This document shows, one piece after another, positions 69-4,454 of a DNA stretch of 4,454 nucleotides (positions within the stretch are counted from its first letter, which is position 1; each line of letters opens with the position of its first letter). The position numbers and the translations under genes are program-made. The DNA is from a virus (taxonomy: Duplodnaviria; Heunggongvirae; Uroviricota; Caudoviricetes), in the IMG/VR virus record IMGVR_UViG_2645727555_000025, positions 1-4,454 of that record; one strand, 5' to 3'. The notes beneath the pieces are model-generated. The model ran no database searches. It saw nothing but the letters and a program-made list of their open reading frames with translations, and was not told where the DNA came from.

Positions 69-93
69 TCTCCAGGATTCCCGGGGCGGTTCA
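69..93 (-). repeat. Terminal inverted repeat (IRL) of the IS3-family element
   Basis: Reverse complement of 69-93 is TGAACCGCCCCGGGAATCCTGGAGA, a 25-bp end beginning with the 5'-TG typical of IS3-family termini. Confidence 0.65.
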
Positions 94-124
94 AGCAGGT
101 GATTTCAGCTCCGCTTTAAATGAG

Positions 125-706
125 TTGGAGTTAGCTCATGAGCCTATAAACGTAATTAAGGCTGAAAGTGTTGAATCTGCCGAAAACGAGCCAGAACAAT
201 TGGGATTTATTGAGGTTGAAGAGTGTGTTGAGGTTAATGATGAATTAAAAGTTCAACAGTCAAATGATAGCAATACAAATAAAAAAGCTCGTACTGCAAG
301 AGGTCCTCGTTTTACTTTAAGTGATAAAGATGATTTGTTTTTCAATAAAGCAGGCTTAGAAAAAGATATTTTCTTAGACGCTTACGAAAACGCGCCTGTC
401 AAAGCAAAGGATAAGATATTAAACCTTCTTAATTGGTTTAGCGGAGGTCCAGATATTAGTGTTTACACGGTAATTTCCATGAGACACCTTCTCACAGAAA
501 AGAAGGCTACAAGTAATAGTATTAAGATTGCTTTAATGAGCAATCCAGAAAAACCGTATCCGCTTAACACTGCGTCAACTCAGGCTGGGCAAATGATGGC
601 TGTATTTCCAGCTACAGGAATTGCTGTTAGAGACGGTGGAAATCTAACATTGAACGAAGAATCACCGATCGTTAAGAAGTTTGTCGCGGAGTACACTATT
701 GGATGA
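125..706 (+). CDS. Hypothetical protein (193 codons from TTG), acidic N-terminal segment; probably the 3' portion of a gene interrupted by the IS insertion
   Basis: Frame is open from nt 5 to stop at 704-706 with no ATG/GTG before 479 and no convincing SD at TTG 125; the IS end lies at nt 93, so the native 5' end is likely displaced. No recognisable motif. Confidence 0.45.
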   Translation: MELAHEPINVIKAESVESAENEPEQLGFIEVEECVEVNDELKVQQSNDSNTNKKARTARGPRFTLSDKDDLFFNKAGLEKDIFLDAYENAPVKAKDKILNLLNWFSGGPDISVYTVISMRHLLTEKKATSNSIKIALMSNPEKPYPLNTASTQAGQMMAVFPATGIAVRDGGNLTLNEESPIVKKFVAEYTIG

Positions 707-746
707 CGTTCCCCTACTGAAAATAAAGCCCATAGAGAGCTTTATA

Positions 747-776
747 GTGCTGGGTAAGCTAACCCATACCCAGCAC
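747..776. other. Stem-loop (10-bp stem GTGCTGGGTA / TACCCAGCAC, 10-nt loop)
   Basis: Perfect inverted repeat 747-756 versus 767-776, read directly. Confidence 0.4.
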
Positions 777-780
777 CACA

Positions 781-828
781 AAAACGCGCCAGAGAGCTTC
801 TTGTTCGCATTTCTGGCGCGTTTTATTT
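781..828. terminator. Bidirectional rho-independent terminator
   Basis: 13-bp perfect stem AAAACGCGCCAGA (781-793) / TCTGGCGCGTTTT (812-824) with GC-rich core, A-tract on the 5' side and TTTTATTT on the 3' side; lies between the ORF at 125-706 and the methyltransferase gene. Confidence 0.6.
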
Positions 829-857
829 GATTGCCATACATAAAATCAAATGCAAAA

Positions 858-877
858 ATAGGTAATCACTTACCTAT
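858..877. promoter_or_regulatory. Inverted repeat ATAGGTAA-TCAC-TTACCTAT just upstream of the methyltransferase start; candidate operator or translation-initiation hairpin
   Basis: 8-bp arms at 858-865 and 870-877, 4-bp spacer, ending 11 nt before ATG 889 and adjacent to the purine-rich RBS region. Confidence 0.3.
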
Positions 878-888
878 CGAGAAAGAAG

Positions 889-1482
889 ATGATTGCAGCC
901 GAAAAAATCAAACAGCGAAAGCGCGACAACTCTCTTCGTGACCTCTGGAGAACACCTGATTGGCTGTTTTCTGCCATTCAACGTTATCTTGGAGTGACAT
1001 TTGATGTTGACGTTGCCTGCAACAAGGACAATGCAAAGCTGCCTATTTTCATAGGCGTTGAGCGCGATGCTTTGAAATCTGAATGGGGGCAGCCAGGTAC
1101 AATTGCCTTCCTCAATCCACCCTACTCCAAAATCTCCCCCTGGATTGATGCGGCTATACGTGAGCAGGCTCGCGGAGTTACAACAGTGATGCTAATTCCT
1201 CAATCCCTCGATACAAAGTGGTATGAGCGTGCAACAGAGTATGCGAATGAGACGATTATTCTGTCTGGTGGCCGCGTTGCGTTTGTCGAGCCTGACGTCA
1301 ATTTGGGTCAGGTAGAAGTAAACATCAACCCCGGTGGCAGTATGCTCGTTGTTTTTCGAGGGTTTTGTCAGGACGCTGGGCACTCTATAAGCAAGATCCC
1401 TTTGGACGTCATGAAAAGTCTGGGAGGGTATGATCCTGCGAATGTGATCAGGAAAAAAAGACCATCAAAGAAGGCTGCTTAG
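889..1482 (+). CDS. Phage-type DNA N6-adenine methyltransferase (Dam family, Pfam PF05869-like), orphan
   Basis: 197 aa; N-terminal WRTPDWLF motif and NPPYS catalytic motif (the D/N-P-P-Y/F motif IV of amino-methyltransferases); purine-rich stretch before ATG 889. Confidence 0.85.
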   Translation: MIAAEKIKQRKRDNSLRDLWRTPDWLFSAIQRYLGVTFDVDVACNKDNAKLPIFIGVERDALKSEWGQPGTIAFLNPPYSKISPWIDAAIREQARGVTTVMLIPQSLDTKWYERATEYANETIILSGGRVAFVEPDVNLGQVEVNINPGGSMLVVFRGFCQDAGHSISKIPLDVMKSLGGYDPANVIRKKRPSKKAA

Positions 1483-1503
1483 TTTGCTCTGGCGTCTGTA
1501 ATT

Positions 1504-1562
1504 AGCCTGCTTCTGTATATATAAATAACTACATATTAATTATTAATATACGGAAGCAGGCT
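1504..1562. repeat. GC-clamped inverted repeat (12-bp arms) enclosing a 35-nt AT-rich palindromic core; candidate terminator or operator/promoter element
   Basis: AGCCTGCTTCTG (1504-1515) pairs with CGGAAGCAGGCT (1551-1562), one G-U equivalent. Core contains the perfect 17-bp palindrome ATATTAAT-T-ATTAATAT (1533-1549). Lies 22 bp after the methyltransferase stop. Confidence 0.45.
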
Positions 1563-1668
1563 GTTTTGTATCAGAGACTCCCAGACCTGAACATCACTAC
1601 AGAATCCACTAGACCCCCTTCCCAGACGCTTTAAAATCGATTTTATGAACCACTTTAAGGAAACCAAC

Positions 1669-1899
1669 ATGTCATACCCGACTAATGTCGTTGCGCTCGT
1701 AGAGAGCGATTTTCTGGCCCAGGCTCGTGAAATGATGAAAGATCGTGAGCAGGCTTTCAACTTGTACGAGTGGGCAATTAAGTGCTTGCATCTTGGCGAG
1801 CATCGCGAACTTGTTGAACAGCTTTTAGGTGAGTTGATCAATGAGGTGTTTGCCTTGAATGTTCAACTACATGGTCGAGAAAATAATCAATCACAATGA
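1669..1899 (+). CDS. Hypothetical small protein (76 aa)
   Basis: ATG 1669 preceded by AAGGA (1657-1661) at 7-nt spacing, preferred over the ORF-track ATG at 1645 which has no SD. Acidic, helix-like composition; no recognised family. Confidence 0.55.
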   Translation: MSYPTNVVALVESDFLAQAREMMKDREQAFNLYEWAIKCLHLGEHRELVEQLLGELINEVFALNVQLHGRENNQSQ

Positions 1900-2319
1900 T
1901 AGATAAGTACAAACTATTCATAAAGTGAATTGTAAGTGCTAAGATCTGATAGTTTCCAGTCGTAGACTGGAGGCTCGACCTGATGGGTGGGGGTAAGCGT
2001 CACTGGCGTCAGGTTTAAAAAAGCTCACTACCAGCGTAGAACCGGTGCCGTATAGGTGTCGGGGAAGGGGGAACCAAAGTGAGCAGAGACAAGGGTCACT
2101 TTATGATTGTCGAGTCTGGGGTGTTTCGAGAGGTTGAATCCAGTACTCCCCTTCATAAAGTGTGGGAAGATCTCGGTTCTGGGGTGCTGTCATCCATAAC
2201 TTCCCAAGTCTAAGCTGGCAGTAGACTTAGACCATAGCTTTTCAGGTTATGAAACGACCAGGTTGGTGAGGAATTTTATACTCACCTCCCTGGGAGAGTA
2301 TTACCTGAAAAGACAACCT

Positions 2320-2357
2320 CTCACTTCGTTCGAGGTGAACTTCACTCACTTCGTTCG
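2320..2357. repeat. Two perfect 13-bp direct repeats CTCACTTCGTTCG (2320-2332 and 2345-2357) flanking the small palindrome GTGAAC-TTCAC
   Basis: Read directly; about 125 bp upstream of the RNase H start codon. Confidence 0.6.
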
Positions 2358-2418
2358 TTCAGTTCAGGTTTATAAAAACCTGTTCTGGGAAGTAATTTGT
2401 TTATTTTAATAATTATTA

Positions 2419-2443
2419 ACACGCACGCGTGTGCGCACGCGCG
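2419..2443. promoter_or_regulatory. 25-nt perfectly alternating purine-pyrimidine tract (ACACGCACGCGTGTGCGCACGCGCG) with nested palindromes, in the RNase H promoter/5' UTR
   Basis: Strict Pu/Py alternation across 2419-2443; palindromes CACGCGTG (2424-2431) and GTGCGCAC (2431-2438); preceded by an AT-rich stretch (2393-2418) and followed by SD AGGAG (2471-2475). Confidence 0.5.
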
Positions 2444-2480
2444 AGGAAAAATCGGCGCGGCGCTTGATTCAGGAGTTTAT

Positions 2481-3071
2481 ATGACGACGAAGACACCAGC
2501 CCGATCGCAAGCAAAAACTCGCAAAAAAGACAAAAACAAAAATTCTCCCCGCACCAATCCCACAACGCCTGTCGTAGAGTTCAATCCCCAGCTTAAAACC
2601 GTGAAAATCTTTAGTGATGGCTCTTGCCTTAAAAATCCGGGTGGCCCGGGCGGTTACGGTATCGTTCTCCAGTATCGTGGTGAGGAACGCGAGTTCTCAG
2701 ATGGTTTTCATAGCACCACCAATAACCGCATGGAGATGATGGGGGCACTTATCGGGCTGGAGCGTTTGAAATATCCATGCAACGTTATTTTGCACTCTGA
2801 TAGCCAGTATCTGAAAAACGGCATGACACAGTGGATGAAATGGTGGAAACGCAATGGATGGATGACTTCTGACAAAAAACCGGTAAAGAATGTTGATCTG
2901 TGGAAGCGTCTGGATGAGGCCGCAAGTCGACATAATGTTCGCTGGAAGTGGGTTAAAGGTCACGCCGGGCATCGTGAAAATGAAATATGTGATCGACTCG
3001 CGAAGATCGCAGCTTTTTCAGCAGCAGATATGCCTCACAAGAAAGATATTGGTTTTGTTTATAACAAATAG
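2481..3071 (+). CDS. Ribonuclease HI homolog (RNase H type 1 fold) with a ~40-aa basic, low-complexity N-terminal extension
   Basis: 196 aa. From residue ~40 it aligns with E. coli RNase HI as I remember it: catalytic D (IFSDGSC), E (NNRMEMM), D (HSDSQY), H (KGHAGH), D (ICDRLA) and the GYG motif are all present. N-terminal 40 residues rich in K/R/T/P. Strong SD AGGAG 5 nt before ATG 2481, preferred over the ORF-track TTG at 2397. Confidence 0.85.
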
Positions 3072-3168
3072 TAAGTAAGTGTTTACCTATCATTTTAAAT
3101 CATGTATCTTATCGGCGTCAGGATGACAATGTGTCGGTAAGACACAGTTCCAGGATGGAACGAGAAAG

Positions 3169-3190
3169 GCGGCTGGCAATCGCCAGCCGC
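3169..3190 (+). terminator. GC-rich hairpin (9-bp stem, 4-nt loop), possible terminator/attenuator after the RNase H gene
   Basis: GCGGCTGGC-AATC-GCCAGCCGC followed by AACTCTTTCT, a weak U-tract. Confidence 0.4.
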
Positions 3191-3219
3191 AACTCTTTCT
3201 GACACTGGATGGAGTCCAC

Positions 3220-3714
3220 ATGGCACGTCAAACCTATTTCACTTCTGTAACTAAACGTCCTCGTTCTTTACGTCAAATTTTGGCCGAATTATTTAGCGGT
3301 CGTGTTATGTCACGTCTTGATGAACTAGAGACTACCGTTCGGTTGCTGAATGAACGTTTAGATAATCAAGCGTCAGTTGTTGCGAACGTGGGGGCGATTG
3401 TTGCCTCTGGTTCTTCACGCGAAGCGAAAAATGCACGGCCTTTAGTGAAGGAGAAAAACAACAAGGACAGTTCGAATGGAAAATTTTCAAAGAAAGAGGC
3501 TGAAACCAATGGCCTACGTTCTCATTATAGTTTCACTGGCGACGGTAGCCGTTCCAGCCGGTCAGAGCCTTTTGATGCCGGATTCATCCATCACCACACC
3601 TTCGTCGACGACAATTACCACCACTCCAGTGGAGCGTCCTGTCACTCTGGATGGGATGGCGGTGGATGCGATACCTCAAGTTCATCCAGTTACTCAGGAT
3701 CATGCTGTGACTAA
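3220..3714 (+). CDS. Hypothetical protein, predicted coiled-coil N-terminal half; C-terminal third is low-complexity (His/Ser/Cys/Gly) and may not be translated as drawn
   Basis: ATG 3220 with GGAG (3211-3214) at 5-nt spacing; first ~85 codons look like genuine coding sequence (amphipathic LDELETTVRLLNERLDN). From ~3480 the +1 frame looks more gene-like than this frame. Confidence 0.4.
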   Translation: MARQTYFTSVTKRPRSLRQILAELFSGRVMSRLDELETTVRLLNERLDNQASVVANVGAIVASGSSREAKNARPLVKEKNNKDSSNGKFSKKEAETNGLRSHYSFTGDGSRSSRSEPFDAGFIHHHTFVDDNYHHSSGASCHSGWDGGGCDTSSSSSYSGSCCD

Positions 3715-3727
3715 GGCGGTTGTATGA
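3476..3727 (+). CDS. Small secreted or membrane-anchored Thr/Pro-rich protein (83 aa) with N-terminal signal-peptide-like segment
   Basis: ATG 3476 preceded by AAGGA (3463-3467); basic n-region MENFQRKRLKP, hydrophobic h-region MAYVLIIVSLATVAV, then PAGQS and a T/S/P-rich region; codon choice looks typical for enterobacterial genes; stop TGA overlaps the next ATG. Confidence 0.5.
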   Translation: MENFQRKRLKPMAYVLIIVSLATVAVPAGQSLLMPDSSITTPSSTTITTTPVERPVTLDGMAVDAIPQVHPVTQDHAVTKAVV

Positions 3728-3912
3728 ACTGGTTTTCAAATCACTTTGGAAAAATTTGGCTGGCAATTCTTGCCCTCATGGCCGCCGGTTGGGTATCGAA
3801 CATTATAAAACTTGTTTGCTCTGGCGATCTCCAGTTTCAGGCTGGCATGACCTTGGCTCGTGTAGTTGGGATTTTTATTTTTCCAGTCGGTTCGGTACTT
3901 GGTTATTTCTGA
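3724..3912 (+). CDS. Small membrane protein (62 aa, two predicted transmembrane helices)
   Basis: ATG 3724 overlaps the upstream stop (ATGA), SD-like AAGGCGG upstream; hydrophobic segments IWLAILALMAAGWV and LARVVGIFIFPVGSVLGYF. Preferred over the W/C-rich ORF at 3720-3950 in another frame. Confidence 0.5.
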   Translation: MNWFSNHFGKIWLAILALMAAGWVSNIIKLVCSGDLQFQAGMTLARVVGIFIFPVGSVLGYF

Positions 3913-3944
3913 CGGTTGTTAGTGCATATGCATTGACCGTCTTT
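3911..3944 (+). terminator. Hairpin (GACGGT / ACCGTC stem around the palindrome TGCATATGCA) followed by CTTT; possible terminator
   Basis: Arms 3911-3916 and 3936-3941; inner palindrome 3923-3932; short T-run 3942-3944. Confidence 0.35.
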
Positions 3945-4005
3945 GCGTAAGCAATTTATTTAACTAGAAAACAACTTGTTTTGACAAATAACAAAAGGAA
4001 AACAC

Positions 4006-4416
4006 ATGTTAGGTTTCTTCAAAAAGAAAACTCGTAAAGCAGTTATCGAAGTCAAAAAAATGGAGAACCGTGATGCGGTTGAGGCCACCGTGTGGGGCGC
4101 GTACATGATCTCCTATGCCGACGGCACATGTGACGCAAAAGAAATTGCCATTCTTGAGAAGACAATTGCAGCTCTGCCTGCGTTTTCTCCGTTTGCTGGT
4201 GAAATTGCCCAAATGAGCGCCAATATCCGTGCTCGTTACGAAGCGTCCCCTCGTTCTGCTAATGCACAGGCTATTCGTGAGCTGTCTGATATTGCTGGTA
4301 CTCCAGAGGCGGTCGATGTTCTGTGTCTGTGCCTTGATATTGCCGATCAGGATGGCATTGGTCGAGTAGGCAGCCTGACGGCTGCGGCTTGTCATGGTCT
4401 GCAATTACCGTTATAA
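4006..4416 (+). CDS. TerB-fold (tellurite-resistance TerB-like) protein, 136 aa
   Basis: SD AAGGA (3995-3999) 6 nt before ATG 4006. N-terminus M-x-x-FF-K and two A-D-G-containing helical segments (YADGTCDAKEIAILEKTI; DIADQDGIGRVGSL) resemble the paired ADG motifs of TerB as I remember them. Confidence 0.7.
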   Translation: MLGFFKKKTRKAVIEVKKMENRDAVEATVWGAYMISYADGTCDAKEIAILEKTIAALPAFSPFAGEIAQMSANIRARYEASPRSANAQAIRELSDIAGTPEAVDVLCLCLDIADQDGIGRVGSLTAAACHGLQLPL

Positions 4417-4454
4417 AAACAGGCAATGTCATTGTCTTTCAGGTGGTTATATGG

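Follow-up and report, generated by a model that had tools for sequence, protein, structure and literature searches.

The locus considered here raises two linked questions: whether a mobile element carries a working RNase HI of its own, and what role is played by the basic extension at the N-terminus of the encoded protein. The open reading frame (ORF) in question lies at positions 2481-3071 of the window, by which is meant the whole 4,454-nt stretch of viral DNA analyzed. Within it, positions 93-4362 are 99.9% identical to pECOH89, a 111.7-kb phage-like plasmid of E. coli, while identity falls to ~98% against phages Cyrano and PhiR41_1 and to ~77% against Salmonella phage SSU5 and Klebsiella phage-plasmids. 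Judged by these matches, the element that hosts rnhA is a phage-plasmid of the SSU5/pECOH89 type, and the near-identity with pECOH89 bears out the original prediction of a second RNase HI borne on a mobile element.

The outer ends of the window have a different origin. Positions 1-96 belong to an insertion sequence (IS) and form an IS629-type end that includes the first part of orfA, on the - strand. Positions ~4356-4454 match a transposase region widespread among plasmids of Escherichia and Shigella. Because both ends match insertion sequences, the window is a phage-plasmid segment of 4.27 kb with an IS copy on either side, and it may be a remnant enclosed by ISs or, alternatively, a contig that broke off at those copies. 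The first ORF (125-706) is truncated by the IS, its pECOH89 counterpart having 269 aa, and the C-terminus of the TerB-like ORF (4006-4416) is likewise altered by IS. Between these ends, the gene order is the IS-truncated hypothetical gene, a Dam methylase, a small ORF (phrog_5343), a 580-nt gap, rnhA, and then a 164-aa ORF, a 62-aa ORF and the TerB-like gene. The Dam methylase (889-1482) also ends in a short basic C-terminal tail (...IRKKRPSKKAA), and basic termini may be a recurring trait of DNA-acting proteins in the element. In the interval between rnhA and the next ORF (3116-3190) there are two hairpins with GGA in their loops (CGUC-AGGAU-GACG and GUUCCA-GGAU-GGAAC), similar to CsrA sites (partial CsrB match, E=0.12) and separated by a covarying middle hairpin. 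A strongly conserved GC hairpin, GCGGCUGGC...GCCAGCCGC, follows them, and the arrangement is retained even in the distant L018 lineage.

The features of rnhA and its product on which the argument depends are as follows.

2471-2475, + strand: Shine-Dalgarno sequence AGGAG, 5 nt before the ATG, as read from the sequence
2481-3071, + strand: rnhA-like coding sequence, 196 aa plus stop; PGAP places the pECOH89 start at the same codon
2481-2561, + strand: predicted disordered polycationic tail, aa 1-27 (pLDDT <50), with frame-preserving indels and a retained MTTKT
2562-2591, + strand: conserved junction, aa 28-37, predicted to be ordered (pLDDT 88 for the block 31-40), with the motif F[DN]PxLK
2592-3068, + strand: RNase HI catalytic domain, aa 38-196, containing the basic protrusion and a lineage-specific one-residue insertion (NPGGPGG)
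2601-2603, + strand: internal GTG (V41), the alternative start of 157-aa annotations, without a Shine-Dalgarno sequence and rejected here
2616-2618, + strand: catalytic D46 (E. coli D10), an invariant alignment column
2733-2735, + strand: catalytic E85 (E. coli E48), a column invariant or nearly so
2799-2801, + strand: catalytic D107 (E. coli D70), an invariant alignment column
2961-2963, + strand: H161 (E. coli H124), a column invariant or nearly so
2991-2993, + strand: catalytic D171 (E. coli D134), an invariant alignment column

By every test available, whether profile, alignment or structural model, ORF 2481-3071 reads as a genuine RNase HI gene. The Pfam RNase_H profile (PF00075) matches aa 40-178 at E=1e-44 (152.6 bits against a cut-off of 25.8), and the protein scores 220.5 bits against the NCBIfam rnhA equivalog NF001236, for which the cut-off is 160, placing it within that family. 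In the PDB it is matched best by E. coli RNase HI and by a reconstructed ancestral enzyme (E ~1e-63 to 1e-66), with query aa 38-180/193 aligned onto chain residues 2-143/152, and identity to E. coli RnhA is ~60% over the whole domain. The AlphaFold2 model of the 196-aa protein has a mean pLDDT of 84.7, with values of ~90 or more in the domain, and Foldseek superimposes it on E. coli RNase HI at a TM-score of 0.92 (rmsd 1.4 Å). The predicted structure has the RNase H fold with its basic protrusion, the sequence of which is also kept. Thus, the profile HMMs and structure prediction that the original prediction had named as checks all return RNase HI, and its claim that every catalytic residue is present holds: the four DEDD carboxylates and the conserved histidine are intact in the alignments. 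Its estimate of ~155 residues for the domain needs a small correction, to ~159 (aa 38-196). Purifying selection on the domain is strong (omega 0.02-0.07), and the encoded RNase HI is almost certainly enzymatically active.

Whether the extension is translated at all is a prior question, and annotators have answered it variously: products of near-identical genes are listed as 157, 196/197, 214/215 or 224 aa, and that of SSU5 as 254 aa. Each of the 17 SSU5-group loci compared has the ATG of 2481 with (A)GGAG before it. Just 5′ of this start is an A-run that varies from 5 to 8 nt and so shifts the frame, from which it follows that the region upstream of the ATG is non-coding; the upstream starts implied by the 214-, 215- and 224-aa products and by the 254-aa product of SSU5 are rejected on account of this frameshifting run and of frames that differ between lineages. 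Inside the extension, length differences amount to whole codons (45, 46 or 49 residues precede the catalytic Asp), and both of its ends, MTTKT and TPVVEFNP, are retained through synonymous substitutions. There is no internal Met, so the possibility allowed for originally, that the true start is an internal Met, fails, and the extension is real. The sole internal candidate is the GTG codon of V41, which has no Shine-Dalgarno sequence and is GTA or GTC in most lineages (L009, L002, L011, L003 and L017), while six orthologous loci have no in-frame start whatsoever from the ATG to the catalytic Asp. On these comparisons the extension is translated, with its start at ATG 2481. The contrary view, that it is an annotation artefact and that translation from GTG V41 yields a canonical protein of ~156 aa, draws on the 157-aa products given by some annotators, and is already effectively refuted by the codon and start-site variation, the in-frame indels and the protein-level conservation through synonymous changes, so that its probability is close to nil.

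What, then, is the extension? In the alignment, nothing in chromosomal RNase HI corresponds to its 36-37 residues. Over aa 1-36 there are nine Lys and Arg against two Asp and Glu (net charge +7, pI 11.2). AlphaFold2 assigns a pLDDT below 50 to aa 1-27 and a block mean of 88 to aa 31-40, and the extension is therefore predicted to consist of ~27 disordered residues followed by a brief ordered stretch, the junction TPVVEFNP, packed onto the domain. The original description of a tail that is basic, largely disordered and absent from housekeeping enzymes is consistent with these results, with the exception that the ~40 residues taken to be unstructured include aa ~28-37, which are predicted to be ordered and are conserved. 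Among Pfam domains, only RNase_H matches the protein at E<=0.01, and a hybrid-binding domain (HBD) or other Pfam domain in the tail is accordingly rejected. The extension does not belong to the HBD class (PF01693-type) on structural grounds either: aa 1-27 are unstructured in the AlphaFold2 model, and the phage enzyme that does bear an HBD (L043) is quite different.

Selection on the extension differs from that on the domain, with omega values of 0.15-0.8 on few sites as compared with 0.02-0.07, and with indels only in multiples of three. Its evolution thus appears relaxed but frame-preserving, and constraint on most of the tail is probably weak because omega reaches 0.8 in some pairs, albeit on few sites. 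Beyond the SSU5 group, tails are found in the P0098 and P0101 lineages, where they are shorter and Lys-rich, and in a second Klebsiella phage-plasmid family (L018), which has a 30-residue tail and an RNase HI that is 51% identical. The tail sequences of these groups cannot be aligned with one another; composition is kept, with net charges of +4 to +8, pI values of 9.9-11.6 and few hydrophobic residues. The junction motif F[DN]PxLK, by contrast with the tail proper, is common to all tail-bearing lineages, including P0098, P0101 and L018. A phmmer search of aa 1-42 against 1.84 billion representative proteins retrieved, apart from pieces of this protein itself, a single low-complexity repeat protein, and the tail is not a portable module.

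The tail-bearing enzymes have in common a one-residue insertion, NPGG[PA]GG, as well as the junction motif and synteny, and because of these shared characters the data point to one ancestral acquisition of the tailed rnhA. A neighbor-joining tree agrees in topology with a single tail-bearing clade, for which bootstrap support is only 35%. As to whether the extension is conserved in homologs on mobile elements, a question raised originally, charge persists in three diverged lineages and the sequence of the tail does not. In the majority of other phage RNase HI genes, the Asp comes after the canonical 8-9 residues. Different appendages do occur, however, outside that canonical majority: two high-GC contigs (L022 and L024) have a C2H2-like zinc finger (CxxC...HxxxxH) N-terminal to a phage RNase HI, and the L043 phage enzyme has a classical hybrid-binding domain at its N-terminus. 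From such sequences, N-terminal appendages on phage RNase HI seem to be both recurrent and diverse. The rnhA gene is already annotated in hundreds of records; a literature search returned no paper on the tail, and the announcement of pECOH89 merely lists rnhA, so that, as far as we could find, a conserved, charge-maintained disordered tail has no prior description.

With regard to function, the best-supported reading is that the gene encodes a replication enzyme for primer or R-loop removal, because the element has a replisome of its own. pECOH89 encodes a RepB-family initiator, DnaE, a DnaB-like helicase, primase and DNA ligase, and also a FEN-type 5′-3′ exonuclease, a DnaQ-like 3′-5′ exonuclease, NrdAB, ThyA and DHFR; the last five of this list lie in the same block as rnhA. 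This replisome is self-sufficient, without Pol I, and the PHROGs category of the rnhA product is DNA, RNA and nucleotide metabolism. In the Cyrano lysogen, rnhA is expressed near the prophage background, with log2(FPKM+5) of 2.6-5.0 (PMC9928086, S1 Table). Such low expression is as expected if rnhA serves chiefly during the lytic or replicative program.

An ancestor of the SSU5-supergroup phage-plasmids would, in this reading, have taken rnhA from a gammaproteobacterial-type source and retained it in the nucleotide-metabolism and replication module of the element. There, RNase HI would remove Okazaki primers together with the FEN-type 5′-3′ exonuclease and ligase of the element, and/or clear R-loops. 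The ~27-residue tail could behave as a non-specific electrostatic tether that raises affinity for nucleic acid, or dwell time on it, in functional analogy with the hybrid-binding domain of other RNases H1 and without relation to that domain. We infer that tethering to nucleic acid is the most likely role of the tail, with tethering to an acidic partner as the alternative. Taken as a whole, the account of an active RnhA-like enzyme, captured, placed in a replication module and tethered by its tail is on balance probable. Several observations weigh against it. Change in the tail is rapid (omega as high as 0.8 in some pairs); host RnhA and the FEN of the element are already present, and rnhA could be redundant with them; the single tail-bearing clade has a bootstrap of 35%; and conservation of charge would suit nucleic-acid binding and an acidic protein partner equally well.

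That last ambiguity gives rise to the strongest alternative, namely that the tail is a protein-protein or localization signal rather than a nucleic-acid tether, for example one that docks on an acidic C-terminal tail of an SSB or helicase belonging to the phage-plasmid replisome, or that directs the enzyme into a complex or the virion. An acidic partner would suit the conserved positive charge, and E. coli RNase HI is stimulated by binding of the SSB C-terminal tail. In addition, MTTKTP at the N-terminus and TPVVEFNP at the junction resemble short linear motifs around a variable spacer. Distant lineages, however, keep composition and not motif in the tail proper. Furthermore, the tail occurs on no other protein among the 1.84 billion representatives, which argues against a shared targeting signal. 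Overall, a signal of this kind is unlikely.

A further alternative involves the 580-nt gap upstream of rnhA, which holds a structured RNA in its own right. This RNA, termed RNA-A, lies on the + strand at ~1952-2415 (core 1977-2393) and is ~420-450 nt in length. Positions ~1975-2385 are 88-96% identical across lineages, as against 77-80% for the flanking genes, whose synonymous sites are saturated. The region is non-coding, having no conserved ORF, 1-2-nt indels in hairpin loops and no 3-nt periodicity of substitution, and a protein-coding explanation is rejected for the same reasons. Its fold energy is -169 kcal/mol on the + strand (z = -4.2) and -139 on the - strand. RNAalifold predicts 126 pairs, of which 98.5% are canonical; many are G-U pairs, whose complements on the opposite strand would not pair. 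Two-sided changes are seen at nine pairs, as compared with 3.2 +/- 1.3 in shuffled alignments, none of 500 shuffles reaching nine, and sliding the pairing partners leaves only 0-1 two-sided changes. The 5′ hairpin (1952-1974) is fully compensated and lies ~7 nt after a conserved -10-like element, TA(A/G)(A/G)AT, and a U-rich tract comes after the closing helix at the 3′ end. Together, these features of the alignment imply a transcript of ~450 nt. RNA-A also has invariant G-runs and a positive GC skew. Known RNA classes were considered and rejected: positions 1880-2500 have no relevant match in Rfam 15 at E<=10, and no tRNA or tmRNA is present.

RNA-A is found in 687 plasmids of PLSDB and in 12 phage records, and in the SSU5-group loci examined rnhA lies 3′ of it, save where later insertions have destroyed rnhA or where truncated remnants are concerned. 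A literature search returned no paper on RNA-A. Part of it has nevertheless been annotated, since a 44-aa ORF inside it, CYRAN_81 (window 2079-2213), is listed as a hypothetical-protein "moron" (PMC9928086). In the RNA-seq data of that study, CYRAN_81 has log2 values of 6.8-10.35 in all ten samples, with a peak in macrophage-internal bacteria at 6 h, whereas the upstream ORF has values of 3.1-5.8 and rnhA of 2.6-5.0 (PMC9928086). The RNA-A signal, as read from CYRAN_81 in libraries that are perhaps not strand-specific, is thus ~8-45-fold above both flanking genes. The 44-aa annotation of CYRAN_81 is a mis-annotation of RNA-A. A replication origin at the RNA-A locus was also considered and rejected: cumulative GC skew in pECOH89 is monotonic over ~95 kb, with its extremes near RepB and no turn at the locus, this being a weak test in view of the near-uniform gene orientation.

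Between RNA-A and the start of rnhA, the 5′ leader at 2419-2463 contains a conserved alternating purine-pyrimidine GC tract, ACACGCACGCGTGYGCRCACGCGCGAGG, then the A-run (5-8) and TCGKCGCGGCGC. Two GC hairpins are possible there, and the tract, which is kept even in L086 and absent from L018, may be a regulatory element. In Buttiauxella and Kluyvera loci (L088 and L090), the same foreign sequence (...TGTAATGTCTTCAATGTGCCA...GCGGAC...) occurs just 3′ of RNA-A and the GC tract, starting in both at one same point where rnhA would be expected; in L090, only a C-terminal remnant of rnhA persists, ~1.9 kb away. Comparison of the two loci suggests that they share one insertion or that the GC tract is a hot spot for insertions.

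In the sister lineages, the position between the phrog_5343 ORF and the tailed rnhA is occupied by another RNA, RNA-B (L018 2420-2860; L094-L097; L098 3820-4254). The L018 family comprises 30 Klebsiella plasmids, in which the RNA-B region spans ~500 nt, with a z-score of -7.3, 150 predicted pairs and 16 compensatory changes among five sequences. RNA-B of L018 has no relevant Rfam match at E<=10, and nhmmer comparisons of RNA-A with RNA-B in both directions detected no sequence similarity. The P0101 lineage has a diverged RNA-B homolog (nhmmer 2e-20), with z = -5.8 on the + strand and -1.7 on the - strand. The P0098 and P0101 lineages also have a degenerate RNase H-like paralog of ~175 aa (L084 166-702; L098 4477-5004), in which the first catalytic Asp is replaced (IFSSGC or IFASGC instead of [ST]DGSC). 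It lies directly 5′ of the tailed rnhA with an overlap of a few nucleotides (4 nt in P0101, where the RNA-B homolog is upstream), and the pair looks, from its sequences, like a pseudo-enzyme followed by an enzyme.

Two members of the L018 family, L095 and L097, keep RNA-B and have no rnhA directly after it; in its place, within the 700-nt flank, is a 148-aa gene on the opposite strand. This arrangement counts against the replication and tether account to the extent that rnhA is dispensable at least at that position. It has a second consequence: because RNA-B occurs without rnhA in these two loci, and because of the expression of RNA-A, the evidence argues that RNA-A and RNA-B are independent genes rather than rnhA leaders, and the chance of an obligate partnership between RNA and RNase H is lowered accordingly.

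Such a partnership is the next alternative to be weighed. The tailed RNase HI might work with the structured RNA upstream of it, either through pre-primer or R-loop processing in the manner of ColE1 RNA II, or with the RNA as a tail-bound ribonucleoprotein or autoregulatory partner. The tail would then be an RNA- or hybrid-targeting arm, and SSU5-supergroup phage-plasmids would possess a dedicated RNA-plus-RNase H module, for example a device for replication or copy control that is RNA-primed or works through R-loops, or a ribonucleoprotein. Conceivably, this could explain why all three lineages have a large structured RNA immediately 5′ of the tailed rnhA and on its strand; the invariant G-runs and positive GC skew of RNA-A are also compatible with it, and basic disordered tails commonly serve as RNA-binding arms. 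Yet the ~8-45-fold excess of the RNA over rnhA mRNA in Cyrano lysogens indicates separate expression, RNA-B persists in L095 and L097 with no rnhA after it, there is no cumulative GC-skew turn at the locus, and RNA-A and RNA-B are without detectable sequence similarity. Each form of the partnership, and the module that would follow from it, is quite improbable.

The original prediction had offered replication or counter-defense as roles for the enzyme, and of these it is replication that gains from the self-encoded replisome and the PHROGs category; for counter-defense no evidence was found. An RNase HI that destroys RNA/DNA-hybrid intermediates, such as retron msDNA, DRT products or Argonaute/CRISPR R-loops, has general plausibility only, as an extra RNase H on a mobile element beside a Dam methylase and unknown genes, and is very improbable given that rnhA sits in a replication and nucleotide-metabolism block rather than in an anti-defense island, that its domain is under housekeeping-like purifying selection and that no anti-defense role for a phage RNase HI turned up in literature searches.

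The preferred reading, a captured replication enzyme with a tethering tail, concerns elements of some practical weight. Clinical E. coli, Klebsiella, Salmonella and Enterobacter commonly carry SSU5-type phage-plasmids, the replication biology of which has barely been studied; some of the 687 PLSDB plasmids with the rnhA/RNA-A locus bear ESBL genes such as CTX-M-15. An RNase HI supplied by the element could influence R-loop metabolism in the host and the replication of co-resident ColE1-type plasmids. The tailed enzyme is also a simple, testable case of a disordered polycation tuning a classical nucleic-acid enzyme. RNA-A is probably the more important lead of the window.

Comparison with known systems helps to place these elements. 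In ColE1, primer processing involves RNA II and RNase H; what the two systems have in common is a structured RNA of ~450-550 nt with G-runs beside an RNase H function, a likeness that bears only on the speculative coupling between RNase HI and the upstream RNA. At the RNA-A locus, in contrast, no origin signature was found, the RepB-family initiator being encoded elsewhere on the element; no sequence or Rfam relationship of RNA-A was found, and it is expressed far above rnhA in lysogens. A second parallel, drawn by analogy, is with the Okazaki-primer removal modules of large phages such as T4 and T7, in which virus-encoded enzymes remove RNA primers for a virus-encoded replisome. T4 rnh is a FEN-family nuclease and does not have the RNase H fold, and the primer-removal enzyme of T7 is the gene 6 exonuclease; unlike T4, the phage-plasmid has a true RNase HI in addition to a FEN-type 5′-3′ exonuclease, and a ligase too.

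RNases H1 of the HBD type, including human RNase H1, the Bacillus halodurans enzyme and that of phage L043, resemble the present protein in having an N-terminal appendage that plausibly raises affinity or processivity. Here the appendage is not an HBD but a disordered polycation with a short junction. The closest relative is E. coli RNase HI itself (RnhA; PDB 1RNH and 2RN2, among others), with which the phage-plasmid enzyme shares the DEDD+H active site, the basic protrusion and, as predicted, the fold. It differs in its extra N-terminal extension of 36-37 aa, in an NPG(G)PGG loop longer by one residue, in a domain pI of 9.6 as compared with 8.4, and in being encoded on a phage-plasmid. The tailed RNase HI is, in sum, a modest variant of a well-known enzyme.
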